Shown in pieces: positions 561 through 34,340 of a stretch of 47,191 bases of DNA (position 1 is the stretch's first letter; every line of letters starts with the position of its first letter). The stretch is from Eubacteriales bacterium (GTDB lineage Bacteria; Bacillota; Clostridia; Oscillospirales; CAG-272): assembly GCA_045580065.1 (NCBI GenBank), contig JAZNNA010000011.1, forward strand, positions 1 to 47,191. The letters are read 5' to 3'. The notes beneath the pieces are model-generated. The model did not search any database, was not told the origin of the DNA, and saw nothing but the letters and a program-made list of their open reading frames with translations. A program made the position numbers and the translations under genes.

Positions 561-1382
561 TCAGCCGAACATTTCTTTGTCTACGTTATCCAAAGAATCA
601 AATACGAAATCGGGCTTGTCAGCCTCGGTAGCTGCCTCAACGTCCTCGGGCGTGGTCTCACCGGAAAGAACGAGCGCAGCGGTAACGCCGTGACGCTTGC
701 CAACGGCGATATCGGTATACAAGCGATCACCGAAAATGCACATTTCCTCACAGGAGAAGCCGGTTGCCTCGCAGATCATCTCAATGGTTTCCTTATAAGG
801 CTTGCCAAAGTAGGTGGGCACCTTACCCGTAGAGGCGGTCACAAAGGCTGCGATCGCGCCGCTATCCGGAATAAAGCCAGTTTCGGTGGGGCAATTGAAA
901 TCGGGGTGGGTGGAAAGATACTCTGCCCCGTTGCGCACCATGCGGCAGGCGTTGTCCATCTTCTCATAGGTGAGGGTGGTATCAAAGCTGGTCACCACGA
1001 TATCGGCATTTTCCTCCTTGCCCGTAAGCATGGGGATGCCGTTTTCGCGGAAGTTTTCAACAAGCTCGTCGGTGCCGACAAGGTAGACGTTCTTGCCTGC
1101 ACGGTGGCGCTTTAAAAACTCGATCGTCACGTCGCCAGAGGTCATGATCTCCTCTTTTGTGGGAGAGAAGCCAAGCTTTGTGAGCTTATTTACGTAAAAA
1201 TCGGTGGTGTGAGAGGCGTTGTTGGTGAAAAACAGCACCTTTTTGCCTGCTGCGCGCAGATTGTTGATAAAGCGGATGGCAAACGGAAATACCTGATAGC
1301 CAAGGTAGATGGTGCCGTCCATATCAAAGATATACAGCTTTTTCTCGTTTAAAACAGAGATATCGGGGTTTTTGAAGTTCAT
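561..1382 (-). CDS. HAD-IIA family hydrolase (NagD/YutF-like sugar-phosphate phosphatase)
   Basis: 273-aa ORF. HAD motif I is FDMDGTIY, followed by FFTNNAS and a C-terminal IFGDRLYTDI motif. Length and cap architecture fit the HAD-IIA subfamily. Confidence 0.8.
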   Translation of the reverse strand: MNFKNPDISVLNEKKLYIFDMDGTIYLGYQVFPFAIRFINNLRAAGKKVLFFTNNASHTTDFYVNKLTKLGFSPTKEEIMTSGDVTIEFLKRHRAGKNVYLVGTDELVENFRENGIPMLTGKEENADIVVTSFDTTLTYEKMDNACRMVRNGAEYLSTHPDFNCPTETGFIPDSGAIAAFVTASTGKVPTYFGKPYKETIEMICEATGFSCEEMCIFGDRLYTDIAVGKRHGVTAALVLSGETTPEDVEAATEADKPDFVFDSLDNVDKEMFG

Positions 1383-1414
1383 AAAAGGTCCTCACTTTCA
1401 GTCTTATCTACACT

Positions 1415-1443
1415 ATTGTATCATACTCTTGATTTTTTTGCAA
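1415..1443 (-). promoter_or_regulatory. Sigma-A type promoter for the HAD hydrolase gene
   Basis: Minus strand reads TTGCAA (1443-1438), 17-nt spacer, TACAAT (1420-1415), with a TG at the extended -10 position (TGaTACAAT). It overlaps the divergent coaW promoter. Confidence 0.5.
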
Positions 1444-1457
1444 GATTGTAGTATAAT
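1429..1457 (+). promoter_or_regulatory. Sigma-A type promoter for coaW
   Basis: TTGATT (1429-1434), 17-nt spacer, TATAAT (1452-1457). The RBS AGAGGTGA precedes the ATG at 1493. Confidence 0.55.
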
Positions 1458-1492
1458 AAATTAAAGATTTTTATCACAGAGGTGATCTGACT

Positions 1493-2341
1493 ATGGCAAA
1501 AACCGTACTTGGAATAGACGTTGGCGGCAGCACCACCAAGATCGTGGGCTTTCGCAAGGAGGCGCACGGTAACGTTCTGATCGAGCCGCAATGCGTGCGC
1601 GCTACCGATCCCCTGACCTCGATCTATGGCGCCTTTGGGCGCTTTACCATGCAAAACGGACTTTTGCTTTCCGATATCGAGCGCGTGATGATGACCGGTG
1701 TTGGCTCCGCCTTTGCGCAAAAGCCGCTTTACGAGGGGCTTGACTGCCGCATCGTGCCAGAATTTGAAAGCGTGGGGCTTGGCGGACTTTACCTTTCCGG
1801 CATGGATGAGGCCGTGATCGTCAGCATGGGCACGGGCACTGCGCTTGTCCACGCACAAAAAACCGCCACCGGCACAAAAACCGACTATCTGGGCGGCACC
1901 GGCGTTGGCGGCGGCACACTGATCGGCCTTTCGCGCAAGATCCTTGGTGTTGACACCGTTGAGCATATCGAGCAGCTTTGCGAGGGCGGCGATCTTTCTA
2001 ACGTTGACCTGCGTATCCGCGACATTTCCTCTAAGGATATGTACCCCAATATGAACTTTGAGCTGACAGCCTCTAACTTTGGCAAATTAAGTGACATTGC
2101 AAGCAAGCACGACATTGCCCTTGGCATTTGCAATATGGTGGGCGAGACCATTGGTATGATGGCGATTTTTGCCGCCAGAAGCCACCATCTGGACAACGTA
2201 GTGCTGACGGGCAACCTGACGGCGCTCAAGCCGATCCGCCGCGTTTTCGAGGCGATGGAGGCTATGTTCGGCATCCGCTTTATCATCCCGGAAAATTCGC
2301 AGTACGGCACCGTGATCGGCGCGGCGCTGGGCGCGCTGTAA
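1493..2341 (+). CDS. coaW: Type II pantothenate kinase (Fumble/CoaW family)
   Basis: 282 aa. N-terminal GIDVGGSTTKIVG is an ASKHA phosphate-1 motif. YLGGTGVGGGTLIGLSRKILG and TASNFGKL match the type II PanK/Fumble signature. Confidence 0.7.
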   Translation: MAKTVLGIDVGGSTTKIVGFRKEAHGNVLIEPQCVRATDPLTSIYGAFGRFTMQNGLLLSDIERVMMTGVGSAFAQKPLYEGLDCRIVPEFESVGLGGLYLSGMDEAVIVSMGTGTALVHAQKTATGTKTDYLGGTGVGGGTLIGLSRKILGVDTVEHIEQLCEGGDLSNVDLRIRDISSKDMYPNMNFELTASNFGKLSDIASKHDIALGICNMVGETIGMMAIFAARSHHLDNVVLTGNLTALKPIRRVFEAMEAMFGIRFIIPENSQYGTVIGAALGAL

Positions 2342-2346
2342 GCAAC

Positions 2347-2378
2347 AAAAAAGGACGGAATCGCTTCCGTCCTTTTTT
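2347..2378. terminator. Bidirectional rho-independent terminator between convergent coaW and MBL-lipoprotein paralog A
   Basis: AAAAAA-GGACGGAA-tcgc-TTCCGTCC-TTTTTT. The stem is a perfect 8 bp and has an A-run on one side and a T-run on the other. Confidence 0.8.
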
Positions 2379-2380
2379 GT

Positions 2381-4774
2381 TTACCTCTTGATCGCAGCCA
2401 CCTTGGATCTGGTCGACCAATCGGCGTAGGTAATGGTCTGGTGTCCCACGGCATCATAGAGATTGTTATAGTCCGCGCCACCGGGCTTGAGGGTCAGCGT
2501 GATATTGTAGATATCCGAAATATAGATATATTTTACGCTGTCAAGATTATAGCGGATGTAATAGTCAACGGACTTATTGAACGAGGTTGTGTTGGGATCG
2601 TTGGTATAGCTCACAACGGCAGATGCGGTGTGAGGCCACCACACAACGGTGGGATCCACCATCTCGTAAAAGCTGATCTCGCAGCCGGGACCGCCGTGGT
2701 GCGATACCTGCACCATATCCGACTTGAGATAAGTGCCGTACATAATGCACATCCACTTGCCCTGATAGCGGTAAGCATCGCCCGTCCACAGCGTGGAGTA
2801 GCGCTGCGAGCCGTTTTTGGTAGAGAAGGTGATGCGCAGAGTTGTGGAGGAATCGTTAAAGGTCACGATATTGTGGGGGTTAAGATCCTCTTGCGTGCAA
2901 AGTATCTCCATTTCGGCATTGGCGAAATAGAGCTTTTGCCCCGTGTGTACCTTGAGATACTTGAATCCGCCCTTAAACGAGCTTTTCAGAGTATCCATAT
3001 AGTTGTTCAACGAGAAGTCGTGCCCCGTGGTGTTATAGCAAGCAGCCTCCGAGGGGAAGTTGCCGATCAGATACTCCAGCTGCACCAGTCCGTTTGAGGC
3101 AAAGACCTTGGCAAAATCGTACAGAACCTGATAGTGATCCCCGTGTGAGTGAGAAATGATCCACGCGGCGATCTTGATGGGAGAGGAGGAGCTGGGCGCC
3201 TTGTTATTGGCCCTGGTATACAGATCGGACAGCACATCCCACATACGCTGCGTGCTGCTTCCTACGCTGGTAGCACCACCGTCATACACAATAAAGCGGC
3301 CATCCTCCAGCATCATCACGTAGCCGGTTCCTACGTTACCGCCCTCAAGCTTTACAGCGGTAATGGTAGAATTAGCTACAAAATTGTACGAGGGGTTGGG
3401 CGTGAGGAGCGAACTGTCGGGCAGTGTTACCGCATCCAAGGGAGCGGAGATCACGCGCAGCATCGGCTCCTCAAAGGCATGCTTTTCAGCATCCGCGTGC
3501 TTGTATGCATTATAAGCTACGTAAAGCGTGGTTTTGGCTTCGTTATTCACAAGCGTTGCAAATTTGCTGTCTTCTATGGTATTTTCCGTCAGGATCTCAT
3601 AACCGCTGGTTTTAAGCGTGCTGCAGTAAGCATCAAATGCACTTGCGTTTACGCCATCGCCCATATACAAATACTGCAGGGAGCTGTCAGCATCATCGTA
3701 GGTGTTATAAAGCTCGATCCCCTGCCCTTCGGGCTTGGGAAAATCGGTGATCCACTTTTCATTAGTGTTATCGGTCAGCTTAAAGCCCTCCGGGAAAACG
3801 ATGCTGACGCTGCCGTCTTTGTCTTCAACGGTAGCAAGCTCAAGCATCGAGATCAAACGCTGCTCACCGTTTATCAGTCCTGCACGCCCCCAAGAGGTAA
3901 AGATCAGCTTGCCGTTCTTTACAAAGATGCCGTATTCCTCGCCGCGAAGCTCGGAAAGAGCGGCCTTGCACTCGTCACGCTCCACCTGGCCAAGCAGGAT
4001 CTCACTGGCTACGGGCTCTGCAGCATCGGTCTTTCTCTTGAGATCGTTCAACTTTTTTCCTGTTTTTCCGGAAAGGATCCCTGCAAGAGTCGTGGCAAAA
4101 TTCACCTCGTAATCCATGCCGTTATTGGGAACGTAGCCCGCCTCGTACTCCGAGCTGCCGCTATCGTCAAGCAGCGCGCTGTAAACAAGGTTGATCACTT
4201 CGTCGCTGCCGGTAACGATGCTGTGCATCTGGATCTTATCTGCATTGACCTCCTTGTGCAGCTCCAACACCGAGTCGGTGCCGTCGCCGGTAAGGTAATT
4301 ATCGATAAAGAAGGACATTGCCTGCACGGTAAGCAGGTGGTTGCTGCCCACAATGGCGATCTTGTTGTCGGTAACTTGGATGGCAAATCCGTTTTCCTTG
4401 ATCGAAGCATATGCTTCTTTACTTTCTTCTCTGCCGGTAAGGCCGATCAGGATCTCAAGCCCTGCGGCACCGCCCTTGGCGCGTGCTTCAGCCGTGGCCT
4501 TATAGCTCTCGCCGGTAGCAGCGCCAAGCCTATCGGCAAAATCGGCGGCGACTATCTTTAAAAAGGCTTCTCGCCCAAACTCGTCGGCATACACAACGTC
4601 GTACTGTGCAACGTCCACCTTTTTCGTTTTGTTGGTAACCTCTACCTCAACGTTGCTGCCCGCGGGAAGCTTGATGTCCTCGGGGTTGGTCTTTTTGCAG
4701 GAGGAAAGAACCGTTACAGCCGCAAGCAAAAGCGTTGCGGCAAGGATCAAACTTAAAACTCTTGTCGTTTTCAT
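2381..4774 (-). CDS. Lipoprotein with C-terminal ComEC-type MBL-fold domain, paralog A of 5
   Basis: ORF 2381..4789. The preferred start is ATG 4774 (MKTTRVLSLILAATLLLAAVTVLSSC), 7 nt after GAGGGA. It has a signal peptide plus lipobox Cys (LSSC). The HxHxDH motif HSHGDH is encoded at 3134-3151. Downstream motifs LWTGDA and VSHHGGPG resemble the ComEC/COG2333 MBL domain. The start lies only 15 nt after the stop of paralog B, so the two are probably cotranscribed. Confidence 0.8.
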   Translation of the reverse strand: MKTTRVLSLILAATLLLAAVTVLSSCKKTNPEDIKLPAGSNVEVEVTNKTKKVDVAQYDVVYADEFGREAFLKIVAADFADRLGAATGESYKATAEARAKGGAAGLEILIGLTGREESKEAYASIKENGFAIQVTDNKIAIVGSNHLLTVQAMSFFIDNYLTGDGTDSVLELHKEVNADKIQMHSIVTGSDEVINLVYSALLDDSGSSEYEAGYVPNNGMDYEVNFATTLAGILSGKTGKKLNDLKRKTDAAEPVASEILLGQVERDECKAALSELRGEEYGIFVKNGKLIFTSWGRAGLINGEQRLISMLELATVEDKDGSVSIVFPEGFKLTDNTNEKWITDFPKPEGQGIELYNTYDDADSSLQYLYMGDGVNASAFDAYCSTLKTSGYEILTENTIEDSKFATLVNNEAKTTLYVAYNAYKHADAEKHAFEEPMLRVISAPLDAVTLPDSSLLTPNPSYNFVANSTITAVKLEGGNVGTGYVMMLEDGRFIVYDGGATSVGSSTQRMWDVLSDLYTRANNKAPSSSSPIKIAAWIISHSHGDHYQVLYDFAKVFASNGLVQLEYLIGNFPSEAACYNTTGHDFSLNNYMDTLKSSFKGGFKYLKVHTGQKLYFANAEMEILCTQEDLNPHNIVTFNDSSTTLRITFSTKNGSQRYSTLWTGDAYRYQGKWMCIMYGTYLKSDMVQVSHHGGPGCEISFYEMVDPTVVWWPHTASAVVSYTNDPNTTSFNKSVDYYIRYNLDSVKYIYISDIYNITLTLKPGGADYNNLYDAVGHQTITYADWSTRSKVAAIKR

Positions 4775-4789
4775 GCTCTGTTCCCTCAA

Positions 4790-7165
4790 TTATTTTTTGA
4801 TAATACTTGTCAGATTGTACTGAATAGTCGCACCGGAGATCGCATCGTAGATGTTTTCGTAATCCGGGCCGTTTGCCGTCAGATTGACCGTAGTGTGATA
4901 GGTATCGGAAACGTAAATGTACTTGACGTTAGGCACCTTATTTACAAGATGATAGTCAACGGCATATTGCCAGCCGGCACTCTGATTGCCCTGCGCAGTA
5001 TAGCTGCGGAATGCCTCGGCAGTGTGCGGGAACCATACCACCGTGGGGTTGACACAATCATAGAACGGGATCTCACAGCCGATGTTGCCGTGGTGCGCCA
5101 CCTGTACCATATCCGATTGCAGATAACTGCCATACAGCGCTGCCATATAGCGGCTCTGGTTGCGGTTGGCATCTCCCGTCCACATCTGGGTAACGGGCTT
5201 TGCACCGGGGGCATCCTGGTTGGAAAGGTGGAAGCGAAGCACCGTGCAGGTATCGTTAGAGTTGTTGATGCGCAAGGGATTGAGATCCTCAAAGGTGGTG
5301 ATCACCTCGATCTCAAGGTTGGCAAGATGATATCTTTGGCCGGCATGTACCTTTACGTATTTAAAGCCGCCCGTCACCTTAGTCTGCAGGCCCTTGATGG
5401 CATTTGTGGAGCTTAAGTGCATCACACCGTCACGCACGGAATAGCAGGAGCTGAGCGACGGGAAGCTGCCAAGCAGATAATCCATTTTGACCTTTTTCGT
5501 TTGGCCGTAAGCACTCAAAAAGTCCTCAAACGCCTCGTAATGGTCGGAGTGAGAGTGCGTAACCACCCAAGCTGCAATGCGGATCGGATTTGTGGTGGAA
5601 ACCTCGGCCTTGGTGATCTCTTTGTGCAGACTGGAAAGAATGCTCCAGATCTTGGTATGGGTGGGCGCACCGTCGTTGCTTGCAAAGCCACCGTCAAACA
5701 GGATGAAGCTGCCGTCCTCAAGCGTGACCACGTAGCCCATACCAACGGCAGCGGAAACAAGCGGGATCGCGGTGGTCTTAGAGTCGGTCTTTTTTACGTA
5801 AGACTGCTTGGTAAGCAGCTTTTCGTCAGGCAGATAGGCGGTAGCAAGCGGCGTGGAGGTAATGCGGAAGTTGGGATCCACAAAATAATATTCGCCCTTA
5901 TCATAGGTGTAATCATCTGCAAAGGCAAACGCGTTATAGTTTACGTGCAGCACAACACCCTTTTCCTGATTGATAAAGGTGGAAAACAGGTTTTCGCCGG
6001 CGGTGGAGGAGGTCTGCAGCACATACCCCTCGGCCTTCAGCTTTTCACAATATGCGTTATAATTTTCGGCGTTGATGCCATCACCCTTATACAGATATTG
6101 CAAGGAGCTATCGTTGGCATCCATGGTGTTATACAGCTCAATGCCCTCGCCATCAGGCTTGGGGAAATCGGTGATCCAGTTCTCGTTGACGTACCCGCGC
6201 AGCGAAAAGCCGTTGGGAAACGCCACACAAGGCTGACCGGCATCGTCCGTAAAAACGGCAAGAGAGATCAGACCCTTGACAAGCTCCTGACAGGTCATCA
6301 ACGCAGCATCGCTGTAGGAGGTGCAAACGATATCCTCACTTCCCACAAAAAAGCCGTATTCGCACGCGCCAAGCTTTGCACGAAGCTCCTTGCAGGCCTC
6401 TCGATTGACGTAGCCCATCAAAAATTCCTTGGTGGACTTTTCACTTTTATCTGTGCGGATAGAAAATTTACCGGCCGAAAGACCAACCTCTCTTGCCGCA
6501 GTGGCAACCAGCTCATCAATAGCGATCACAGGGAAATCGCGGTGGTCGCCGCCTGCGGAGTGCACGTATTCGTGCACCACGGAGTCGTCAAGCTTGTCAT
6601 CGTAGATATAGCGGAAAAAGCTTTCGGTAGAGTTGGCAAGCACCACCATCTCCATCTCGTTTGCACTTGCCTTTTGGTGTACGGAAAGCGTGCTGCCGAC
6701 AGCGGCTCCGGCGGTGAGATAGGTATCGGAAAAATACTGCAGAGCCTGTACGGTAAGCAGCTGGCTGCTGCCCACGATCACGATCTTATTGCCGATCAGC
6801 TGAACGACAAAGCCGTCGCCCTTGATGGATTTATAAGCCTTTTGGCTTTCTTCCCTTTTTGTAAGGCCGATCAGGATCTCCGGGTCGGCAGCGGTGCTGC
6901 GCGTTTTATCATCGCTATTGGCGACAAGAGGAAGGCCGGTAGCACCCGAAAGCGTGTCTGCAAAATTTACAACGATCTTTTTGAGTGCTGCGATCTCACC
7001 GTAGCTTTGGGGGTATACCAACGCATACTCGGTAAGGTCGATATCCTGCCTTTTCTTGCTGCGCTTTACCTGATCCACCCTTTCGCTGCAAGCGGCGAAA
7101 ATAAGGGTTAAGGAAAGCAGCATAGCCGCGGCCAGAAGAAGGCAAACAACTTTTTTCATCTTCAT
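4790..7165 (-). CDS. Lipoprotein with C-terminal ComEC-type MBL-fold domain, paralog B of 5
   Basis: 791 aa. The start MKMKKVVCLLLAAAMLLSLTLIFAAC has the lipobox FAAC, and AAGGAG lies 7 nt upstream. HSHSDH is encoded at 5540-5557. It also carries MWTGDA and VAHHGNIG. It is collinear with the other four paralogs and shares WITDFPKPDGEGIELYNT. Confidence 0.8.
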   Translation of the reverse strand: MKMKKVVCLLLAAAMLLSLTLIFAACSERVDQVKRSKKRQDIDLTEYALVYPQSYGEIAALKKIVVNFADTLSGATGLPLVANSDDKTRSTAADPEILIGLTKREESQKAYKSIKGDGFVVQLIGNKIVIVGSSQLLTVQALQYFSDTYLTAGAAVGSTLSVHQKASANEMEMVVLANSTESFFRYIYDDKLDDSVVHEYVHSAGGDHRDFPVIAIDELVATAAREVGLSAGKFSIRTDKSEKSTKEFLMGYVNREACKELRAKLGACEYGFFVGSEDIVCTSYSDAALMTCQELVKGLISLAVFTDDAGQPCVAFPNGFSLRGYVNENWITDFPKPDGEGIELYNTMDANDSSLQYLYKGDGINAENYNAYCEKLKAEGYVLQTSSTAGENLFSTFINQEKGVVLHVNYNAFAFADDYTYDKGEYYFVDPNFRITSTPLATAYLPDEKLLTKQSYVKKTDSKTTAIPLVSAAVGMGYVVTLEDGSFILFDGGFASNDGAPTHTKIWSILSSLHKEITKAEVSTTNPIRIAAWVVTHSHSDHYEAFEDFLSAYGQTKKVKMDYLLGSFPSLSSCYSVRDGVMHLSSTNAIKGLQTKVTGGFKYVKVHAGQRYHLANLEIEVITTFEDLNPLRINNSNDTCTVLRFHLSNQDAPGAKPVTQMWTGDANRNQSRYMAALYGSYLQSDMVQVAHHGNIGCEIPFYDCVNPTVVWFPHTAEAFRSYTAQGNQSAGWQYAVDYHLVNKVPNVKYIYVSDTYHTTVNLTANGPDYENIYDAISGATIQYNLTSIIKK

Positions 7166-7203
7166 AGCTTTGCTCCTTTACAAAGATATAAATAGTTAGT
7201 TTA

Positions 7204-7232
7204 ATTATATCATCAAATCCTGCTTTTGGCAA
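7204..7232 (-). promoter_or_regulatory. Sigma-A promoter with extended -10 for paralog B (and probably A)
   Basis: Minus strand reads TTGCCA (7232-7227), 17-nt spacer, TATAAT (7209-7204), preceded by TG (TGaTATAAT). Confidence 0.6.
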
Positions 7233-7305
7233 GCGGTACGGTGCGATGTTTGCTTTCTCTTCACTTTTTTCGCCGTTTTTCACAATTGCCAAATTCACTT
7301 TTCGG

Positions 7306-7341
7306 CATTTCGCGCAAAAAGGGCAACGGGAAAATTCCCGT
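7306..7341 (-). terminator. Rho-independent terminator after paralog C
   Basis: GGGCAACGGGA (7312-7322) / TCCCGTTGCCC (7327-7337), a perfect 11-bp stem. A T-run follows on the minus strand (rc of 7307-7311). Confidence 0.8.
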
Positions 7342-7354
7342 TGCCCTTTTGATC

Positions 7355-9781
7355 TTATTTTTTGATGGCGAAAACGCCGTTGTGCGTAAGCTTGTTGAAC
7401 TCGGTGGTAGAAGCATCGAAAATGTTATCGTGGTCCGGGCCGTTCTTGGTAAGAACAAGCGTGATATAATACGCGTAGGTAGAGGCCTTATCACCGGAAA
7501 TATAAATATATTTCACGCTGGGCATCTCATACGCGATGTGCTGATCCACCTGGAACTGCCAGCCGTTATTCAGCTTTTCCCTGTTCATGTAGTTGTGAGC
7601 AGCCTTGGCACTATGCGGCCACCAAACGGTTTCGGGCTGCACCATATCGTAAAAGTCGATCTCAAGACCTACGTTGCCGTGGTGCGCGATCGACACCATA
7701 TCCGACTTCAGATATTCGCCGTACATAGCGCACATCACGCGGCTCTGGCGGCGGTTGGCGTCGCCCGTCCACATCTGCGTAACGACCTCGCTCGGGTTAT
7801 CCTTGTTGGTCATGGTAAAGCGCAGGACCGTGTTGGTATCGTTGCCGTCACACACACGCATGGGAGTGGTATCCGCCCAGGTGGTGATCACCTCGATCTC
7901 CAGGTTTGCAAGGTAATATTTTTGCCCCGTACGAGCCTTGATGAACTTAAAGCCACCCTTTACCGCATTTTGCATATTTGCAATCGTTTTGGCGGTTATG
8001 ACCTTACCGATATCGGTCGTGCAGGAATACTCCTGGGGGAAATTGCCGATCATATAATCGATCTTCAGCGAGCCGGATCTGCCGTTCGCCTCAGCCATCT
8101 TCATAAAAGCATTGTAGTGGTCGCCGTGTGCGTGCGTCAGGACCCAAGCGGCAATATGAACGGGGTTAGCGGAAGAAACGGGTCTGCCGGTGATCTTGAC
8201 CTTCAGGTTGGTCAGCCACTCCCACAGTCTGGTGTGCGTGTCGCCGTTGTCGCCCATAGCACCACCGTCAAATACGATAAATCTGCCGTCCTCAAGCACC
8301 ACCACGTAGCCAAGACCTACGGCCCCCTCGTAAAGCGGGATCGTGCTGATCATCGAGTCGGTCACCTTATCGTAAACGGGATTTTTGTTCAGCAGATTGC
8401 TGTCCGCAAGGCCGGCATCCTCCAGGGGGGTGGATGCAATGCGGAAGCACTCCTCAAAATCATAGCAATTGGTATCCTTGGTTTTTACCTTGGAATGCAC
8501 GTTGTCATACGCGGAAAATTCGTTTTTATGCTTATAAGCGTTGTACGCCACGTACAAAGAAACACCCTCTTTGTTGTTGACAAAGGTGGTAAAGATGCTG
8601 TCCTCTGCACTGCTTTGCATCAGCACGCTGTAGCCCTCGCTCTTCAGCTTTTCGCAGTATGCGTTGTAGTTGGCGGCATTGATCCCGCTGCCGGTATAGA
8701 GGAACTGCAGAGAGTTTTCGCCGTCCTCCACCGTGTTATACAGCTCGATCCCCTCCCCTTCAGGTCTGGGGAAATCGGTGATCCACTTATCATTTCCAAC
8801 GCGCACAAGGCGGAAGCCCTGCGGAAGCGCGACCGTAACGGTACCGTCCTCATTTTTCACGGTTGCCTCGGCCAGAATATCCATATAGGCGCCTGCCGCA
8901 TTGATCAGCAGCGTATCGTTCCAGGCTGTTACGTGGACCTTGTCGCCTTCTACCACCACGGCGTACTCGTTTTCGGCAAGGGTGGCAAGCAGTGCGCGGT
9001 TCTCCTCACGATCGGGATACCCAACCAAGATCTCTTTCTCAGCAGTTTCGCTATCCTTGATGATCGGGAACAGCTTTTCGCGAAGGCCGGTCAGGTCTAC
9101 CATCTTTTGCACCATATTATCAATGACAAGCTGCGGATGATCCTTGTACGGCCCTCTATGGCCGGTAGAGCTTGTGCCCATATAGGCGCCGGTCAGCATA
9201 CCAAGATGCGCCTGGTGCACAAAGGAGTAGTAGCCTTTTTCAGAATCTGCAAGCAGCGCCATCTCCAGGTTGTTTGCCGCAGCCTTTTTGTGCACGGAAA
9301 GCACGGTGCTTTCCTCGCCCTCGGCCACAAGATACTTTTCCTGGAAGTACTGCACTGCCATCAGCGTCAGCAGATTGGAGGAGCCGACGATGACGATCTT
9401 GTTTTCCGTTACCTGGATCAAAAAGCCGTCGCCCTTGATGGCGCTATGCGCCTTTTTGCTTTCCTCTCGACTGGTAAGGCCGATCAGGATCTCTTTATCA
9501 CCCTTATCGGTCGTGGCGCGATCTTCGGTACGTGCCCAATAATTTTCACCGGTCTTTGCGCTAAGGGCGGTGGCAAAATCAGCCATGGCCTGCGTGAAGG
9601 TAACGGTGTATGCCTCGTCGCTCATAGAATCGCCGTACACAACACCATAGTCGGTAACGTCTACCTCGACGAGCTTTTTGTTAAGCGTGACGTAGCCGTC
9701 CTTTTCGCTGCAGGCAGTAAACAAAAGCGCACAGCCAAGCAGCATGGACAAAGCAAGCAAAAGGCTTAGGATCTTTTTCAT
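7355..9781 (-). CDS. Lipoprotein with C-terminal ComEC-type MBL-fold domain, paralog C of 5
   Basis: 808 aa. The start MKKILSLLLALSMLLGCALLFTAC has the lipobox FTAC. HAHGDH is encoded at 8117-8134. It also carries MWTGDANRRQ, IAHHGNVG and WITDFPRPEGEGIELYNT. Confidence 0.8.
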   Translation of the reverse strand: MKKILSLLLALSMLLGCALLFTACSEKDGYVTLNKKLVEVDVTDYGVVYGDSMSDEAYTVTFTQAMADFATALSAKTGENYWARTEDRATTDKGDKEILIGLTSREESKKAHSAIKGDGFLIQVTENKIVIVGSSNLLTLMAVQYFQEKYLVAEGEESTVLSVHKKAAANNLEMALLADSEKGYYSFVHQAHLGMLTGAYMGTSSTGHRGPYKDHPQLVIDNMVQKMVDLTGLREKLFPIIKDSETAEKEILVGYPDREENRALLATLAENEYAVVVEGDKVHVTAWNDTLLINAAGAYMDILAEATVKNEDGTVTVALPQGFRLVRVGNDKWITDFPRPEGEGIELYNTVEDGENSLQFLYTGSGINAANYNAYCEKLKSEGYSVLMQSSAEDSIFTTFVNNKEGVSLYVAYNAYKHKNEFSAYDNVHSKVKTKDTNCYDFEECFRIASTPLEDAGLADSNLLNKNPVYDKVTDSMISTIPLYEGAVGLGYVVVLEDGRFIVFDGGAMGDNGDTHTRLWEWLTNLKVKITGRPVSSANPVHIAAWVLTHAHGDHYNAFMKMAEANGRSGSLKIDYMIGNFPQEYSCTTDIGKVITAKTIANMQNAVKGGFKFIKARTGQKYYLANLEIEVITTWADTTPMRVCDGNDTNTVLRFTMTNKDNPSEVVTQMWTGDANRRQSRVMCAMYGEYLKSDMVSIAHHGNVGLEIDFYDMVQPETVWWPHSAKAAHNYMNREKLNNGWQFQVDQHIAYEMPSVKYIYISGDKASTYAYYITLVLTKNGPDHDNIFDASTTEFNKLTHNGVFAIKK

Positions 9782-9813
9782 AAACGTATCTTCCTTTCAT
9801 AAGGGTTTTGTTT

Positions 9814-9842
9814 ATTATATCAATTTTCTTCTGTAAAGTCAA
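9814..9842 (-). promoter_or_regulatory. Sigma-A promoter with extended -10 for paralog C
   Basis: Minus strand reads TTGACT (9842-9837), 17-nt spacer, TATAAT (9819-9814), preceded by TG (TGaTATAAT). Confidence 0.6.
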
Positions 9843-9884
9843 GCGCACAAGCTGCACAACTCACAATTTTAAAAGATATATCAC

Positions 9885-9920
9885 AAAATAAAAGCGGCAG
9901 CGAGGCTTACTCGCTGCCGC
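9885..9920 (-). terminator. Rho-independent terminator after paralog D
   Basis: GCGGCAGCGAG (9894-9904) / CTCGCTGCCGC (9910-9920), an 11-bp stem with a 5-nt loop. TTTTATTTT follows on the minus strand. Confidence 0.8.
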
Positions 9921-9928
9921 CGGGATTT

Positions 9929-12391
9929 TTACTTTCTGGCTGCTACGTAATTGACCTTATAGAAATCGGTCACCGCGCAGTAGTCAACGGTTTTACCTGT
10001 CATCAGGTCGAAAACGCCGTCGTAATCCGGGCCGTTTGCGGTAAGCACCATGGTAACGTAGTGTGCGCTATACTTGGTGTCGCCGGACTTGTTGCCCGAG
10101 GTGTACAGATACTTAACAGTGTTGATCTTGTACATCAGGTGCTGGTCTACCTCGTACTGCCAGCCCTTGCCCTCGTTTGCGGGGTTGAGGTAAGAGGCAA
10201 CAGAACTTGCATTGTGAGGCCACCACACAACAGTGGGAGAGATCAGATCGTAGAACTCTACCTCACAGCCGGCGTTGCCGTGATGTGCCACGGAGGTCAT
10301 ATCCGACTTGAGGTAGCTACCGTACATGGCGCACATAAAGCGGCTCTGCCAACGGTTGGCGTCTCCCGTCCACATCTGGGTGATCTTCTGGCTTGGATTA
10401 TCCTTGTTGGTCATGGTAAAGCGCAGAACGGTGTTGGTATCGTTAGAGTTGTTGGTGCGGATGGGGTTGAGGTCCTCCCAGGTGGTAATGACCTCGATCT
10501 CGCAGTTTGCAAGATACAGCTTATCACCTGTGTGTAGCTTGACGTACTTAAAGCCGCCGCGGATCGAAGCTTTCAAGCTGGCCACCAGCTCATCGCTCAT
10601 AACATTCAGACCAGCGGCACCGGCATAAGAGCCCTCCTGGGTGGGAACGTTGGCAAACATATAATCCATCTTCAGCTGGCCGGAGCTGCCGTAGGTATCA
10701 GCCATACGCACAAATGCATAGTAGTGATCCCAGTGTGCATGAGTCAGCACCCAAGCAGCAATGTGAACGGGGTTAGAGGAAGATACGGCCTTGCCGGAAA
10801 TGCGCTCCTGCAGCATGCTAAGTGTGCTCCAAAGCACCTTGTGCTCGGCAGTTGCGGCATCGTCGTTTACACCGCCGCCATCAAACACGATAAATCTGCC
10901 GTCCTCAAGAGTCACAACGTAGGAAAGGCCTACTGCCTTGCTGTAGATAGGCATGGTAGTGATCATAGAATCGGTCTTTTTATCGTATGCGGGGTTTTTG
11001 GTCAGCAGAGTGCTGTCTGCAAGGGTAACGGAATCAAGAGGTGCGGAAACGATACGGAAGCAGGGATCCTGCTCGTAATAGCCCTTATCACCGGTTTCGT
11101 CCTTGGAGTCGGTGTAGCTATAGGCAGAAAACTCATCTCTGTGCTTAAACGCATTGTAGGCCACGTACAGAGTAATGCCCTCCATACGGTTTACAAAGGT
11201 GGTGAACAGGCTGTCCTCAATGCTGTTTTCGCTGAGGATGCTGTAGCCGGCAGCCTTCAACGTATCGCAGTAGGCCTTGTAGGAGGTGGCATTTACGCCG
11301 TCGCCCATATACAGGTACTGCAGCGCATTGTCAGAAGCATCCATCGTGTTGTACAGCTCAATTCCCTCGCCCTCGGGCTTGGGGAAATCCGTCTTCCAGT
11401 CCTTATCGACGCGTCCGGAAAGGCTAAGGCCGATGGGAAGCGAAACGCTCTTGTCCTCGGCGGTGCCTTCTATGAGCAAATCAATGTACTCGGTAACGGC
11501 GCCCTTTACGGTAACGTCGTTCCAGCCGGTGACCTGGATCTGATTTTCCTGCACGGTGATCCTGTACTGGTCATCGGCAAGCGTAGCAAGCAACGCCTTG
11601 TTCTCGTCGCGCGCTACCACACCCACAAGAACCTCTTTTTCTGCGGTATCACTATCCTTTTCGATCTTAAACGCCTTATCGCGCAGGCCGGTCTGAGCCA
11701 CCATCTTCTGCACGATCAAGTCGATCGCGACCTGTGGATAGTCCTTATACGTGCTGTTAGCAAGAGTAGAGCCGGAAACACCCTTGTAAACGGGGGGGAG
11801 GATACCAAGCGATGCATCGTGAACGTAAGAGAAGTAGGATTCTTCGGCATCGGCAATGGTCACACTCTGCATTTTAAAGGCCTGTGCCTTTTGGTTGATG
11901 GAAAGCTCGGGATTGACCTTTTCGCTGTCGGAGAGGTACTTATCGGCAAAATACTGCACAGCCTGCAGAGTAAACAGGTTGGAGCTACCAACGATAACGA
12001 CCTTTTTGTCAGTTACCTCAATGGCAAAGCCATCGCCCTTGATAGAGTTGTAAACCTTTTTGCTTTCCTCGCGGTTGGTAAGGCCGATCAGGATCTCCTT
12101 GTCGCCCTTATTGGTCTTTGCGCGGTCTACGCTATAAGCAACAAAGCTTTCGCCGGTGGCCTTGTTCAGCATAGCGGCAAAATCAGACATACGCTCTTTA
12201 AAGGTAACGGTATAGTCATTGCCTGTCATAGAATCACCGTAAACCAGACCGTAATCGGTCAAATCCACTTTGACCTGCTTTTTGCTGAGCTTGACGTATC
12301 CATCTCTTTCGCTGCAGGCGGAAAGAATGAAGGTCGTGCTTACCAGCATCAAAAGCGCCAGCGCAAGACTGAGAATTTTTCTCATCTTCAT
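9929..12391 (-). CDS. Lipoprotein with C-terminal ComEC-type MBL-fold domain, paralog D of 5
   Basis: ORF 9929..12472. The preferred start is ATG 12391 (MKMRKILSLALALLMLVSTTFILSAC; lipobox LSAC) with an AAGGAG RBS. The upstream ORF extension would run through the promoter. The HxHxDH variant HAHWDH is encoded at 10725-10742. It also carries MWTGDANRWQ, VAHHGNAG and WKTDFPKPEGEGIELYNT. Confidence 0.8.
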   Translation of the reverse strand: MKMRKILSLALALLMLVSTTFILSACSERDGYVKLSKKQVKVDLTDYGLVYGDSMTGNDYTVTFKERMSDFAAMLNKATGESFVAYSVDRAKTNKGDKEILIGLTNREESKKVYNSIKGDGFAIEVTDKKVVIVGSSNLFTLQAVQYFADKYLSDSEKVNPELSINQKAQAFKMQSVTIADAEESYFSYVHDASLGILPPVYKGVSGSTLANSTYKDYPQVAIDLIVQKMVAQTGLRDKAFKIEKDSDTAEKEVLVGVVARDENKALLATLADDQYRITVQENQIQVTGWNDVTVKGAVTEYIDLLIEGTAEDKSVSLPIGLSLSGRVDKDWKTDFPKPEGEGIELYNTMDASDNALQYLYMGDGVNATSYKAYCDTLKAAGYSILSENSIEDSLFTTFVNRMEGITLYVAYNAFKHRDEFSAYSYTDSKDETGDKGYYEQDPCFRIVSAPLDSVTLADSTLLTKNPAYDKKTDSMITTMPIYSKAVGLSYVVTLEDGRFIVFDGGGVNDDAATAEHKVLWSTLSMLQERISGKAVSSSNPVHIAAWVLTHAHWDHYYAFVRMADTYGSSGQLKMDYMFANVPTQEGSYAGAAGLNVMSDELVASLKASIRGGFKYVKLHTGDKLYLANCEIEVITTWEDLNPIRTNNSNDTNTVLRFTMTNKDNPSQKITQMWTGDANRWQSRFMCAMYGSYLKSDMTSVAHHGNAGCEVEFYDLISPTVVWWPHNASSVASYLNPANEGKGWQYEVDQHLMYKINTVKYLYTSGNKSGDTKYSAHYVTMVLTANGPDYDGVFDLMTGKTVDYCAVTDFYKVNYVAARK

Positions 12392-12443
12392 AGCAATTCT
12401 CCTTAATAGATAAAATAAACCGATCCACTCGGTTTGTAGCCCC

Positions 12444-12472
12444 ATTATACCACCTTTCGGTTTTGAATGCAA
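12444..12472 (-). promoter_or_regulatory. Sigma-A promoter with extended -10 for paralog D
   Basis: Minus strand reads TTGCAT (12472-12467), 17-nt spacer, TATAAT (12449-12444), preceded by TG (TGgTATAAT). Confidence 0.6.
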
Positions 12473-12550
12473 GTAAAATCAGGACTGTTCACTTTTTTGC
12501 AAAACTTTTTGGTTTATTTGACAAATTCCTCTTTCAAATTTTGTAAATTA

Positions 12551-12584
12551 CAACAAACAAAGGGGAAGGCGCGCGGCCTTCCCC
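12551..12584 (-). terminator. Rho-independent terminator after paralog E
   Basis: GGGGAAGGC (12562-12570) / GCCTTCCCC (12576-12584). TTTGTTTGTTG follows on the minus strand. Confidence 0.7.
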
Positions 12585-12599
12585 TTTGTAGGCGGTTAC

Positions 12600-15014
12600 T
12601 TATTTTTTAACCGAAACCGTACCGTCATACGGGATCAGCTCGCCGGTCTTAAGGTCATATACCTCATCGAAGGCGGGGCCGGTCTTGCGCAGCTCAAGCA
12701 CGGTATAGTATTTGTCGTTGGTTCCCTTTGCATCGCCGGATACAAAGATGTACTTTACGCTGGGAATGTTGTTTACAAAGTGCTGGTCGACCTCGTACTG
12801 CCAGCCTCTGCTGATGTTTGCAGGGGTGGTATACATCTTGTAAGCACTCATGTTGTGCGGCCACCAGATAGCGGTGGGAGAAACAAGATCATAGAACTCG
12901 CACTCAAGACCGAGGTTGCCGTGGTGAGCCACGGAAACCATATCGGCATCAAGGTAAGAGCCGTACATAGCGCAAAGATAGCGGCTCTGCCAACGGTTGG
13001 CGTCGCCCGTCCAGATCTGCACGTTCTTTTCGTTGGGGTTATCCTTGTTGGTCATGGTAAAGCGCAGAACGGTGTTGGTATCGTTAGAGGTATAGGTGAC
13101 GCGGGGATTCAGATCCTCCCAAGTGGTCAGGACCTCGATCTCAAGATTGGCAAAGTAGAACTTCTGGCCGGTATGCACCTTGATGTACTTGAAGCCGCCC
13201 TTGACAAGAGATTGCCAGTTTTTGATGCTCTGCTCCGTGATGCCGCCCGAGCCGTGTGCCCAGTGGGTATATGCAGCAAACTCGTTGGGGTAGTTACCAA
13301 AGAGGTAATCCATCTTCAGGGTGCCGTTTTGGCCGTAGCGGGAAAGCACGCGATTGAATACGTAGAAGTGGTCGCCGTGGGGGTGCGTTACGATCCAGGC
13401 TGCGATATGTACAGGGTTGGAGGCGGAAACGGCCTTGCCGGTGTACTTTTCCTTCAGATCCTTCATTACGCCGTAAAGACGAACGTCCTCGTCGCCGGTG
13501 TTTTCGCCCATATTACCGCCGTCAAACACGATAAATCTGCCGTCCTCAAGCATGATCACGTAGATCAGACCAACGGCGTTGCCGTGCAGAGGCATGGTTG
13601 CGATCGCAGCATCGGCGATCTTATCGTAGGGCTGCTTTTTGAGGATCTTGTCATCGGGGAGCGTGACGGAGCTGATGGGAGTGGATACGATACGGAAGCA
13701 CTTTTCAAAGTCGTACCAGCCGATATCGCCGGTCTTGACCTTGGAAGCCTTGCTTGAGTATGCGGCAAACTCGTCCTTATGCGCATAAGCATTGAAGGAC
13801 GCATAGATCGTATGGTTCTTTTTCTGGTTGACAAGCGTTACAAAAACACTGCCCTCCACTTCGCTCTCGGTAAGAACGGTGTAGCCCTCACCCTTCAGGG
13901 TGTTGCAGTAGGCCTTGAGAGCATCGGCGGTCACGCCGTCGCCCATGTAGATATACTGCAGCGAGTCGTCGGTGGCGTTCATGGTGTTGTACAGCTCGAT
14001 CCCCTCGCCCTCGGGCTTGGTGAAATCGGTGATCCAATCCTCGTTTACTGCGCCCGTGTAGGTAAAGCCAACAGGCAGAGCAATGACCTTATCTGCGGTC
14101 ACAGCCTCGGCAAGCAGATCAATGTAGGTATCAACGCAAACGTCAAGCGCGTCGGTGCACCAGGCGTTCAGAACGACCTGGTTCTCCGTTACGTTAAGAA
14201 TGTACTGGTCCTCGGCAACGGTGGCGCGCAGCGCAACGCTCTCCTCGCGGTCCACGACGCCTACCAACACCTCTTTTTCGGCATTCTCGGTATCGGTAAT
14301 GGTGGAGAAGGCTCTTTCGCGAAGGCCGGAAAGCTTGGCCATCTGCTTTACGATATTTTCGGCAGCCACAACGCAGTAATCGCGGAAGTCACCGGAAACG
14401 CTTGCATAGTCTGGGCACTTGGGATCGGTTCGAAGTCCGTCCTGGAACACGTAAGAGAAATAGCTGCTTTCAGTATCGGCAAGCACGGTGGTGGCCATCT
14501 GGTTTGCCTTGGCGGACTGGTTGATCTGAAGCTTTGCTTCAGGCTTTTCCACCACGTTAAGGAAGGTGGTCTTAAAGTACTCTACCGCCATCAGCGTGAA
14601 GACGTTGGAAGAGCCCACGATCACGATCTTGTTTTCAGTCACCTGAATGGCAAAGCCATCGCCCTTGATGGAATTGTAAGCCTTTTTACTTTCTTCGCGG
14701 TTGGTAAGGCCAATAAGGATCTCCTTGTCGTTCTTACCGGTCTTTGCGCGGTCCTCGGTCTGGGCGATAAAGCCCTCACCGGTGGCAGCGGAAAGCGCAG
14801 TAGCAAAATCTGCCATTTTTTCTTTATAGGTTCTGGTAAATTCGTTTTCGCTCATCGAATCGCCGTATACCAGCGCGTACTCAGAGAAATCGACCTCTAC
14901 CTTTTTGCCGCTCAGCTTTATCTCTCCTTTTTTCGCACAGGAAGAAAAAAGCACGGCGCCGCCTGCCAGCATCAGCACTGCAAGCAGAAGGCTTAAAACT
15001 CTCGTCTTTTTCAT
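12600..15014 (-). CDS. Lipoprotein with C-terminal ComEC-type MBL-fold domain, paralog E of 5
   Basis: 804 aa. The start MKKTRVLSLLLAVLMLAGGAVLFSSC has the lipobox FSSC. HPHGDH is encoded at 13368-13385. It also carries IWTGDANRWQ, VAHHGNLG and WITDFTKPEGEGIELYNT. Confidence 0.8.
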   Translation of the reverse strand: MKKTRVLSLLLAVLMLAGGAVLFSSCAKKGEIKLSGKKVEVDFSEYALVYGDSMSENEFTRTYKEKMADFATALSAATGEGFIAQTEDRAKTGKNDKEILIGLTNREESKKAYNSIKGDGFAIQVTENKIVIVGSSNVFTLMAVEYFKTTFLNVVEKPEAKLQINQSAKANQMATTVLADTESSYFSYVFQDGLRTDPKCPDYASVSGDFRDYCVVAAENIVKQMAKLSGLRERAFSTITDTENAEKEVLVGVVDREESVALRATVAEDQYILNVTENQVVLNAWCTDALDVCVDTYIDLLAEAVTADKVIALPVGFTYTGAVNEDWITDFTKPEGEGIELYNTMNATDDSLQYIYMGDGVTADALKAYCNTLKGEGYTVLTESEVEGSVFVTLVNQKKNHTIYASFNAYAHKDEFAAYSSKASKVKTGDIGWYDFEKCFRIVSTPISSVTLPDDKILKKQPYDKIADAAIATMPLHGNAVGLIYVIMLEDGRFIVFDGGNMGENTGDEDVRLYGVMKDLKEKYTGKAVSASNPVHIAAWIVTHPHGDHFYVFNRVLSRYGQNGTLKMDYLFGNYPNEFAAYTHWAHGSGGITEQSIKNWQSLVKGGFKYIKVHTGQKFYFANLEIEVLTTWEDLNPRVTYTSNDTNTVLRFTMTNKDNPNEKNVQIWTGDANRWQSRYLCAMYGSYLDADMVSVAHHGNLGLECEFYDLVSPTAIWWPHNMSAYKMYTTPANISRGWQYEVDQHFVNNIPSVKYIFVSGDAKGTNDKYYTVLELRKTGPAFDEVYDLKTGELIPYDGTVSVKK

Positions 15015-15051: not shown

Positions 15052-15080
15052 ATTATAACATTAATGTTATTCTTGTGCAA
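15052..15080 (-). promoter_or_regulatory. Sigma-A promoter with extended -10 for paralog E
   Basis: Minus strand reads TTGCAC (15080-15075), 17-nt spacer, TATAAT (15057-15052), preceded by TG (TGtTATAAT). Confidence 0.6.
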
Positions 15081-15255
15081 GTTTTTTACTTTTTTTGCTT
15101 TAAATTTCATTTTGTTGCACAATTTGTTCAACTGGATTTTGGCATTTCACACAATAAAAGCAGTCTTTTCTCGGCTTGCATATTTGTATTTTTGAAAACG
15201 CCATGCCCTCCCCTTTCTTTTTTACAAAAAATGCAGAAAGCTGCCGCTTTCGCTC

Positions 15256-18009: not shown

Positions 18010-18410
18010 AAAAAAGCACCCGCAATTAGCGTGTTCTCCTTAACGGAGAACACGCTAAAACTAAGTTTGCCCTTATGGGCAAGTGAAGTTTACTTCGTAA
18101 GTGAAGTTATCCTGCGGATAGTGAAGTTTTGCCTTTGGCAAAGTGGGCAAACTTAACTTCACTGCGAGCCCCTGTGAGCAACTTCACTGTGCGTAGCACA
18201 ACTTCACTTTCGCAGTAGCGAAAACTTCACTAACAGAAAAAGAGCAGACACATAAGGTCTTTTCCCCCTTGCGTGTTTGCTCTTTCTGCTTGTATAAGGG
18301 TTTGGGCTTAGCCCATTTGCATTTGACCAGTCAAATGCGATGCTCGCACTTAACGGTGTTTTCCAAATTCTCCGCTAAGAGCATCACCCATTCTCTGCGG
18401 GTGCTTTTTT
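18010..18410. other. Highly structured ~400-bp noncoding element: candidate large structured RNA, or a MITE-like insertion in a terminator loop
   Basis: The outer 14-nt arms AAAAAAGCACCCGC (18010-18023) and GCGGGTGCTTTTTT (18397-18410) are perfect complements. Inside are a 12-bp hairpin (18028-18039/18045-18056), the repeat ladder at 18082-18231, hairpins at 18241-18251/18273-18283, 18304-18314 and 18319-18338, and a pairing of 18339-18345 with 18379-18385. No ORF of 60 aa or more is present. Confidence 0.5.
18082..18231. repeat. Inverted ladder of 9-nt repeats: 3x AGTGAAGTT followed by 4x AACTTCACT, alternating with mini-hairpins
   Basis: AGTGAAGTT occurs at 18082-18090, 18100-18108 and 18120-18128. 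Its reverse complement AACTTCACT occurs at 18155-18163, 18180-18188, 18200-18208 and 18223-18231. The spacers are self-complementary mini-hairpins of unrelated sequence: 18091-18099, 18109-18119, 18129-18141, 18188-18200 and 18209-18222. Confidence 0.8.
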
Positions 18411-34228: not shown

Positions 34229-34304
34229 ACTTGATCTCCTTTTCCATAATGGTTTTCGCCCTTGTAAATGATCTGTTAAGCAGAACACTCCCAAGATTAA
34301 TAGT

Positions 34305-34333
34305 ATTTTAACATATTTTCGAAATTTCGTCAA
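34305..34333 (-). promoter_or_regulatory. Sigma-A promoter with extended -10 for the LTD protein gene
   Basis: Minus strand reads TTGACG (34333-34328), 17-nt spacer, TAAAAT (34310-34305), preceded by TG (TGtTAAAAT). Confidence 0.55.
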
Positions 34334-34340
34334 GACCTGT

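Follow-up and report, generated by a model that had tools for sequence, protein, structure and literature searches.

What does a tandem array of five large, related lipoprotein genes do in an uncultured gut Clostridia bacterium? The five neighboring genes lie on the minus strand between positions 2381 and 15014 of contig JAZNNA010000011.1 (assembly GCA_045580065.1) and encode 791-820-aa proteins that end in a metallo-beta-lactamase (MBL) fold domain; the window analyzed here is the whole stretch of 47,191 nucleotides (positions 1 to 47,191 of the contig). Our comparison of structures, motifs and gene neighborhoods suggested that the proteins are probably exported, catalytically active metallo-phosphoesterases. 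A narrower proposal, which we put forward tentatively, is that they are lipid-anchored surface phosphodiesterases with two metals, belonging to the Pce/ComEC clade and acting on phosphodiester-bearing glycopolymers.

Five paralogous lipoprotein genes

The open reading frame (ORF) list of the window contained five collinear genes over 12.6 kb, exactly where a preliminary description had placed them: paralog 1 at 2381-4774 (797 aa from the ATG at 4774), paralog 2 at 4790-7165 (791 aa), paralog 3 at 7355-9781 (808 aa), paralog 4 at 9929-12391 (820 aa from the ATG at 12391) and paralog 5 at 12600-15014 (804 aa). Their full-length pairwise identity was 42-57% in end-to-end alignments, far above chance, and paralog 1 stood furthest from the other four (42-43% identity). 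In paralogs 1 and 4 the mechanical ORF call began further upstream, at a TTG codon (4789 and 12472, respectively); the ATG starts are preferable because an AGGAG-type ribosome-binding site precedes each of them, as it does the chosen ATG in all five genes.

At each N-terminus, a K/R-rich n-region and a hydrophobic stretch preceded a lipobox Cys at residue 24-26. The signal peptides and the lipoboxes LSSC, FAAC, FTAC, LSAC and FSSC (paralogs 1 to 5), which had already been pointed out, were recovered by a pattern search ([LVIF][ASTV][GAS]C), and the Cys was kept in 92 of 98 full-length relatives; one of the 59 family members scanned against Pfam matched LPAM_1. The N-terminal signal peptide was the sole hydrophobic segment. 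An extracellular location also fits the long relatives, since some of these are fused to surface repeats (Flg_new and the BspA leucine-rich repeat, LRR) in giant proteins. We infer that the five paralogs are exported and lipid-anchored at the cell surface.

The metal-binding signature HxHxDH (motif II) was found in all five paralogs, at 3134-3151 (HSHGDH), 5540-5557 (HSHSDH), 8117-8134 (HAHGDH), 10724-10741 (HAHWDH) and 13368-13385 (HPHGDH) in paralogs 1 to 5, respectively. Four of these positions were those originally given; HAHWDH had been placed at 10725-10742, one base off. Motif III lay downstream at 2843-2857 (NDSST), 5243-5257 (NDTCT), 7829-7843, 10430-10444 and 13071-13085 (NDTNT in the last three). 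All five proteins also contained the two further motifs previously reported downstream of HxHxDH, namely WTGDA (2774-2788, 5168-5182, 7757-7771, 10358-10372 and 12999-13013) and (S/A)HHG (SHHG at 2693-2704; AHHG at 5087-5098, 7676-7687, 10277-10288 and 12918-12929).

Fold and predicted active site of the MBL domain

The MBL domain of paralog 5, modeled alone (residues 447-804; pLDDT 86.7), matched many MBL structures with a Foldseek probability of 1.0 and is therefore a member of the MBL superfamily. Its best match in the PDB was Pce/CbpE, the enzyme of Streptococcus pneumoniae that acts as a phosphorylcholine esterase on teichoic acid (2bib, E 1.7e-12; 1wra, E 1.2e-11; template modeling (TM) score on target 0.67), followed by the ComEC/Rec2 beta-lactamase-like domain of Moorella glycerini (9ic4, E 8.5e-12, TM on target 0.67) and the MBL-fold arylsulfatase of Pseudoalteromonas atlantica (8gyg, E 2e-10, TM on target 0.50-0.53). 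YhfI, RNase Z, RNase J, PNGM-1 and UlaG were further matches; those of beta-lactamase type (PNGM-1 and Rm3) had E values of 1e-7 to 1e-5, far behind Pce and ComEC. This ranking agrees with the literature, because papers on ComEC independently name Pce as the closest structural relative of its MBL domain (PMC5031224, PMC12455585).

A profile comparison supported the same placement. As no ComEC gene was found in the window or in the relatives' loci, the C-terminal domain of Escherichia coli YcaI, a member of the ComEC family, was used as the comparator. The hhalign alignment covered 231 columns (E 5.2e-5) with all five motifs in register, pairing EDGRFIVFDGG with RNGKAILYDTG, THPHGDH with SHEHLDH, NDTNT with NNHS, WTGDA with LTGDI and AHHGN with PHHGS, and thereby identified N644 as the motif III Asn. 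The earlier assignment of the TGD...HHG pattern to a ComEC/COG2333-type domain is borne out by this alignment. HMMER alignments to the ComEC structures 9vc6 and 9ic4 spanned exactly the TGD...HHG segment, with E values of 0.06-0.3.

Nine residues of paralog 5 (D498, H544, H546, D548, H549, N644, D671, H697 and H698) were invariant in 98 of 98 full-length relatives from 68 loci. They comprise the seven predicted metal ligands, the Asp of motif I (D498) and the His that partners the ligand in the HH pair; motif II read HxHxDH in every relative. That every predicted ligand is fully conserved is strong evidence for an active two-metal centre. Predicted metal site 1 would consist of H544, H546 and N644 and site 2 of D548, H549 and H697/H698, with D671 bridging the two.

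The predicted site combines features of the two closest relatives. The canonical motif II, HxHxDH, also occurs in Pce, an enzyme with a binuclear metal centre; the motif III residue of Pce is His (PMC8579336), whereas that of the paralogs is Asn. ComEC differs from Pce in having Asp for one motif II His and Asn for the motif III His (PMC8579336), so that the paralog family joins a Pce-like HxHxDH to a ComEC-like N644. With the ComEC domain it has in common the Asn of motif III, the TGD of motif IV and the HHG of motif V, whereas its motif II differs from the HxDxDH of Bacillus and Moorella ComEC (PMC8579336, PMC12455585); HxDxDH is not universal in the ComEC family, however, because YcaI has HxHxDH. 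The idea that Pce itself uses an Asn ligand is contradicted by PMC8579336 and was dropped.

Neither relative accounts for the whole protein, and identity with either was rejected. The ComEC channel (Pfam Competence) and OB fold (DUF4131) had no match in the paralogs or their relatives, and the NCBIfam ComEC models TIGR00361 and PRK11539 scored 13-15 bits, far below their cut-offs of 190 and 969. ComEC is a polytopic membrane protein, whereas the paralogs are acidic lipoproteins present in many copies per genome; the two have in common an extracytoplasmic location (predicted for the paralogs), and the proven chemistry of ComEC is metal-dependent phosphodiester hydrolysis. Pce is anchored by C-terminal choline-binding repeats, which were matched in no Pfam scan of the paralogs and relatives, whereas the paralogs have an N-terminal lipobox and a predicted lipid anchor; sequence similarity to Pce was not significant, and the MBL domain of the paralogs, unlike that of Pce, stands at the C-terminus behind three extra domains.

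In class B beta-lactamases the zinc ligands are His116-His118-His196 and Asp120-Cys221 or His121-His263. This assignment, which the preliminary description had already ruled out, was rejected for the paralogs, as they have no invariant motif III His and no motif IV Cys and the beta-lactamases ranked low in the structural search. We consider it quite unlikely that the proteins perform some other MBL-type hydrolysis (as a lactonase, beta-lactamase, thioesterase or D-Ala-D-Ala peptidase) or serve as non-catalytic surface binding or structural proteins. The catalytic versatility of the MBL fold (PMC7785958) and the presence of PNGM-1, UlaG and YhfI among the Foldseek matches are consistent with such roles; however, the invariance of the predicted ligands speaks against a non-catalytic one, phosphodiesterases give the closest matches in structure and motifs, and the class B ligand pattern is absent. 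The anti-phage protein 6A-MBL was also rejected as the parent family (NCBIfam 16-17 bits against a 220-bit cut-off).

Domain architecture

An AlphaFold2 model of full-length paralog 5, built from a 59-sequence alignment, reached a pLDDT of 92.5 and a pTM of 0.89. On the basis of this model and Foldseek, the protein was divided into a signal helix (residues 2-26) followed by a disordered tether, two domains with the same beta-alpha-beta-beta-alpha-beta-beta-alpha layout (D1, residues ~31-157, and D2, residues ~158-310), a small, conserved alpha/beta domain of no known family (D3, residues ~311-446) and the C-terminal MBL sandwich (residues ~447-804). The corresponding positions on the minus strand are 14937-15014 (signal peptide and lipobox), 14544-14924 (D1), 14085-14543 (D2), 13677-14084 (D3) and 12603-13676 (MBL). 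Comparison with hhalign showed that D1 and D2 are an internal duplication (probability 99.1%, E 1e-18) and that D3 is related to neither. Within D3, the stretch W-I-T-D-F-P-K-P-E-G-E-G-I is conserved.

In a Foldseek search, the whole model matched the N-terminal accessory domains of glycoside hydrolase (GH) families GH20 and GH84 (E 1e-6 to 1e-5) in addition to MBL proteins, with the arylsulfatase 8gyg as the top match (E 5e-8). The five window proteins gave recurrent, faint N-terminal matches to the Pfam models NAGLU_N, Glyco_hydro_20b and Glyco_hydro_67N. Among 59 family members, Lactamase_B was matched by 51, NAGLU_N by 28, Lactamase_B_2 by 15, GH20b by five and GH67N by four. D1 and D2 are thus two copies of a domain of the accessory type with which GH20, GH84, GH89 (NAGLU_N) and GH67 glycosidases begin. 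In those enzymes an accessory domain likewise precedes the catalytic domain; in the paralogs, however, the accessory domain is duplicated and the (beta/alpha)8 barrel is replaced by D3 and the MBL domain. The proteins themselves were rejected as glycosidases, since only accessory-domain models matched and the AlphaFold2 model contains no barrel.

Scanning the five proteins against Pfam and NCBIfam yielded no family assignment for the whole protein, and nearly all matches were sub-threshold; Lactamase_B reached its cut-off in paralog 4 only (23.0 against 22.7 bits). A search of PDB sequences with three profiles returned nothing significant, an exact-sequence look-up of paralog 5 returned no entry, and our literature search found no paper on the family; the Lipocone paper mentions MBL proteins only in unrelated contexts. 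The view that no characterized family covers the full architecture was upheld by these searches.

Distribution of the family and conservation of the locus

A word-indexed search retrieved 80 relatives, all from metagenome-assembled genomes (MAGs) of uncultured Clostridia, Oscillospiraceae or 'Eubacteriales' and all labeled 'hypothetical protein' or 'MBL fold metallo-hydrolase'. At E<=1e-3, an exhaustive profile search of 50%-identity clusters retrieved 6,857 representatives; the stricter limit of E<=1e-30 left 1,592. Most relatives were ~780-830 aa long, and some formed part of giant surface proteins, the longest of which had 6,405 aa. Among species-representative genomes we found 70 loci, nearly all in gut MAGs, including those from humans (the Hadza among them) and from the roe-deer caecum. 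The paralog family is confined to uncultured gut Clostridia. Several MAGs contained many copies; SIG663 had at least nine, both dispersed and in tandem.

The family adjoined alaS in ~21 loci and a PanK-like gene in ~15, and this site was kept even in distant subfamilies with ~28-30% identity. In the loci with both flanks visible, the number of copies between alaS and the PanK-like gene was 1, 1, 1, 1, 2, 2, 3 and 4, and it was 5 in the window. Clustering of 812 ORFs from the 70 related loci revealed only housekeeping synteny (alaS, the PanK-like gene, HAD and an RqcH-like gene). The neighbors in the window were also housekeeping genes, comprising HAD, the PanK-like gene, alaS, ftsZ, murG, the rest of the dcw cluster, mraW and a penicillin-binding protein gene. 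As the neighbors are purely housekeeping genes, they give no operon clue to the substrate.

In a neighbor-joining tree, the window paralogs interleaved with copies from other MAGs, which indicates that the duplications are old and that the lineages have been retained. Paralog 3 was left out of the tree because the picking of longest ORFs was misled by antisense ORFs. Stop-free ORFs of 405-847 aa do lie on the plus strand opposite all five paralogs (3149-4561, 5417-7111, 7226-9769, 10724-12406 and 13779-14996); nothing indicated that these antisense ORFs are real genes. Among the modules of the five paralogs, D2 was the most divergent, with a mean identity of 33% compared with 50-55% for D1, D3 and the MBL domain. 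Since the catalytic centre is the same and D2 has diverged most, the five paralogs probably recognize different substrates.

The preliminary description is refined by these data: Pce is an equal or closer match than ComEC, motif II is Pce-like, the ~300 N-terminal residues are duplicated domains of the glycosidase-accessory type, and the array is an old one of one to five copies at a conserved locus. The substrates suggested there (DNA, nucleotides and phosphodiester-linked glycopolymers) remain speculation.

Clues to the substrate

One relative, a metagenomic representative of 1,166 aa (P0099), carried a membrane-anchored alkaline phosphatase (PF00245, E 2e-58) N-terminal to the D3-MBL module, and the phosphatase was intact, with the active-site sequence DSAAGATA. 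Because P0099 fuses an intact alkaline phosphatase to D3-MBL, it points to phosphate esters. Pfam scans of 18 long or giant members recovered one alkaline phosphatase and one BspA-LRR match, and the others were Pfam-dark.

A link to glycans came from the glycosidase-type accessory domains and from a sister family found in sugar-catabolic gene clusters. This family consists of ~586-615-aa lipoproteins with the order D1-D3-MBL, ~30% identical to the paralog family over ~540 residues and prevalent in human-gut assemblies. Three human-gut contigs (L078-L080) shared a co-directional cluster (6696-21190 in L078) in which a 414-aa D3-MBL protein lacking a signal peptide came after a 586-aa MBL lipoprotein. 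The cluster also encoded an unknown lipoprotein, two unknown paralogs of 545 and 556 aa, a CBM9/LPXTG protein, an FGGY sugar kinase, a fucose/arabinose-isomerase-like protein, TIM, SIS, YjbQ and TAL/FSA, and a GH36 gene lay upstream. In another contig (L072), the genes flanking the sister gene encoded AraC regulators, an MFS transporter and a GtaA-like six-hairpin protein; the short partner of the sister family in this contig (9830-11056) had ADC in place of TGD and HHA in place of HHG, and its product may be catalytically altered or inactive. One member of the paralog family itself (L049) was clustered with two amidohydrolases, a GDSL esterase and an AraC regulator.

The rank of 8gyg, the top match of the full-length model and the third distinct match of the MBL domain, raised the question of whether the proteins are sulfatases of the MBL fold, which would take sulfate esters off glycans like mucins, glycosaminoglycans or algal polysaccharides. 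Glycosidase-type accessory domains and the sugar-catabolic loci of the sister family would suit that role. We nevertheless regard it as very doubtful: the TM score on target of 8gyg, a single-domain enzyme with the MBL fold, was lower than the 0.67 of Pce and ComEC, the TGD...HHG signature and the motif III Asn tie the domain to ComEC-type enzymes, and the alkaline phosphatase fusion favors phosphate over sulfate esters.

The match to ComEC bears on a different alternative, in which the paralogs would be surface nucleases or nucleotide phosphodiesterases that degrade extracellular DNA, RNA or oligonucleotides for nucleoside and phosphate uptake or for the clearance of extracellular DNA. The ComEC MBL domain, our second-best structural match, is a proven Mn2+-dependent endo/exonuclease that also acts as a phosphodiesterase on bis-p-nitrophenyl phosphate (PMC8579336, PMC12455585), it has the motif III Asn, TGD and HHG in common with the paralogs, and RNase J and RNase Z were among the Foldseek matches. 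The P0099 fusion would also suit nucleic-acid scavenging, and in one contig (L074) a sister-family MBL gene (8001-9887) was divergent from a type IV or competence-type pilus cluster (576-7620; MshE/T2SSE, T2SSF, a prepilin peptidase and N_methyl pilins), although this single adjacency may be due to chance. We nevertheless consider a nuclease role unlikely. Motif II is HxHxDH and not the HxDxDH of ComEC (PMC8579336), and the putative DNA-binding Ser that follows HHG in ComEC is replaced by Asn or Gly in the paralogs. Pfam scans of family members detected no nucleic-acid-binding module such as an OB fold, a beta-CASP or a KH domain, and the accessory domains are glycosidase-like. The mature window paralogs are acidic (pI ~5, net charge -22 to -32; family median -35), as are the MBL domains (family median -13), whereas the ComEC model has a positively charged conserved groove (PMC5031224). 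Finally, at least five diverged paralogs are hard to explain for a substrate as chemically uniform as DNA.

The identity of Pce as a phosphocholine esterase raised the possibility of phospholipase C/D-type enzymes that cut phospho-headgroups from sphingo- or glycerophospholipids (sphingomyelin, ceramide phosphoethanolamine or lysophospholipids) at the cell surface, and NAPE-PLD is a precedent for an MBL-fold phospholipase (PMC7785958). In the SIG663 contig (L005, 8499-21963), four Ceramidase_alk-like genes flanked a family member on both sides, and a ceramidase-like gene was divergent from the sister-family cluster in all three contigs L078-L080 (4993-6408 in L078). These neighbors represent a possible connection with lipid headgroups. 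However, they occurred in only two kinds of locus out of ~75, their Pfam matches were weak (25-39 bits) and their products lacked signal peptides. With no lipid-binding feature detected in the proteins and no ceramidase-like gene in the window, a phospholipase function appears very unlikely.

Taken together, the evidence leans toward a glycopolymer substrate over DNA. Pce itself is an exported, surface-associated Gram-positive enzyme that cuts the phosphodiester of a wall glycopolymer (PMC4929436). In the glycopolymer phosphodiesterase mechanism that we propose, signal peptidase II would process the precursor so that the N-terminal Cys tethers the protein to the outer face of the membrane, displaying outward the two duplicated alpha/beta domains, D3 and finally the MBL catalytic domain of the Pce/ComEC clade. 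The two-metal centre would activate a bridging hydroxide for attack on a phosphodiester. The substrates would be phosphodiester-linked groups or linkages on extracellular glycopolymers (teichoic-acid-like polymers or phosphoglycans), which might belong to the cell's own wall or be foraged from other microbes, the diet or the host. With the catalytic centre in common and the second N-terminal domain diverged, the paralogs would probably recognize different ones.

Several observations weigh against this proposal. Sequence similarity to Pce and ComEC is sub-significant in database searches (best E 0.05-0.3), and the link to them depends on the predicted structure and one pairwise profile comparison. 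The alkaline phosphatase fusion comes from a single cluster. The glycan-locus context belongs to the sister family and not to the window genes, whose own family has only housekeeping neighbors (alaS, the PanK-like gene, HAD and the dcw cluster). We know of no demonstrated carbohydrate-binding role for the GH-accessory-type domains. Lastly, net charge is a weak argument against nucleic-acid substrates.

Transcription signals and other features of the window

Four promoter-like sites of near-consensus extended -10 form (CTTGnn-N17-TGnTATAAT) were found on the minus strand: for paralog 5 at 15052-15081 (CTTGCA-N17-TGTTATAAT), for paralog 4 at 12444-12473 (CTTGCA-N17-TGGTATAAT), for paralog 3 at 9814-9843 (CTTGAC-N17-TGATATAAT) and for the unit of paralogs 2 and 1 at 7204-7233 (CTTGCC-N17-TGATATAAT). 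Intrinsic-terminator-like hairpins followed paralog 5 (12557-12589) and paralog 4 (9893-9921) on the same strand. A palindromic hairpin 3' of paralog 3 (7317-7350), with an A-run before it and a T-run after it, was terminator-like in either direction, and a bidirectional terminator-like hairpin (AAAAAAGGACGGAAGCGATTCCGTCCTTTTTT, 2341-2380) separated paralog 1 from the convergent PanK-like gene. These promoter-like and terminator-like signals suggest four transcription units, each with its own strong promoter-like site; paralog 1 is probably co-transcribed with paralog 2, as the gap between them is only 15 nt. A scan of the window against Rfam found no riboswitch or leader upstream of the paralog genes.

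The sole Rfam match in the window was the Gut-1 RNA motif (RF01706), just downstream of alaS at 18058-18132 on the plus strand (54.6 bits, gathering threshold 50, E 3.5e-8), which fits a gut-metagenome origin. The C-terminal part of ftsZ (18415-18757, minus strand) encodes a long tandem-repeat linker of ~20 repeats before the C-terminal peptide. Another large extracellular protein without known function is encoded at 30734-34357 on the minus strand; apart from two Lamin Tail Domain matches (E 7.7e-13), Pfam recognizes nothing in this secreted protein of ~1,160 aa, which has the signal peptide MKKSRILSLILAVLMLAVSVPAFALPASA.

Implications for gut Clostridia

The fold and the likely chemistry of these proteins are known; the architecture and the large, wholly unannotated family are new. 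Family size, copy-number dynamics and glycosidase-like accessory domains make the family a worthwhile target. A far-reaching reading, which we think improbable as it stands, is that the proteins form a new class of glycan-processing enzymes in which an MBL phosphodiesterase has replaced the glycosidase barrel behind hexosaminidase-type accessory domains. Uncultured gut Clostridia would then use expanding arrays of them to dismantle phosphodiester-linked polymers as nutrients, each paralog tuned to another polymer; candidates include the teichoic acids of other bacteria, capsular phosphoglycans, yeast phosphomannan and host phosphoglycans.

Teichoic acids, phosphoglycans and other phosphodiester-linked glycopolymers abound in the gut, and to our knowledge few enzymes that degrade or remodel them have been described. 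If the proposed function is correct, a large unannotated enzyme family (1,592 or more clusters at 50% identity, nine or more copies in single genomes) would be a major surface activity of abundant uncultured gut Clostridia. A defined family with a confident structure and easy expression would provide a direct handle on glycopolymer degradation in the gut, and thousands of entries now labeled 'hypothetical' or 'MBL fold metallo-hydrolase' would gain a name that genome annotators could use. Within the MBL fold, the Pce/ComEC branch would then reach well beyond competence and pneumococcal biology.

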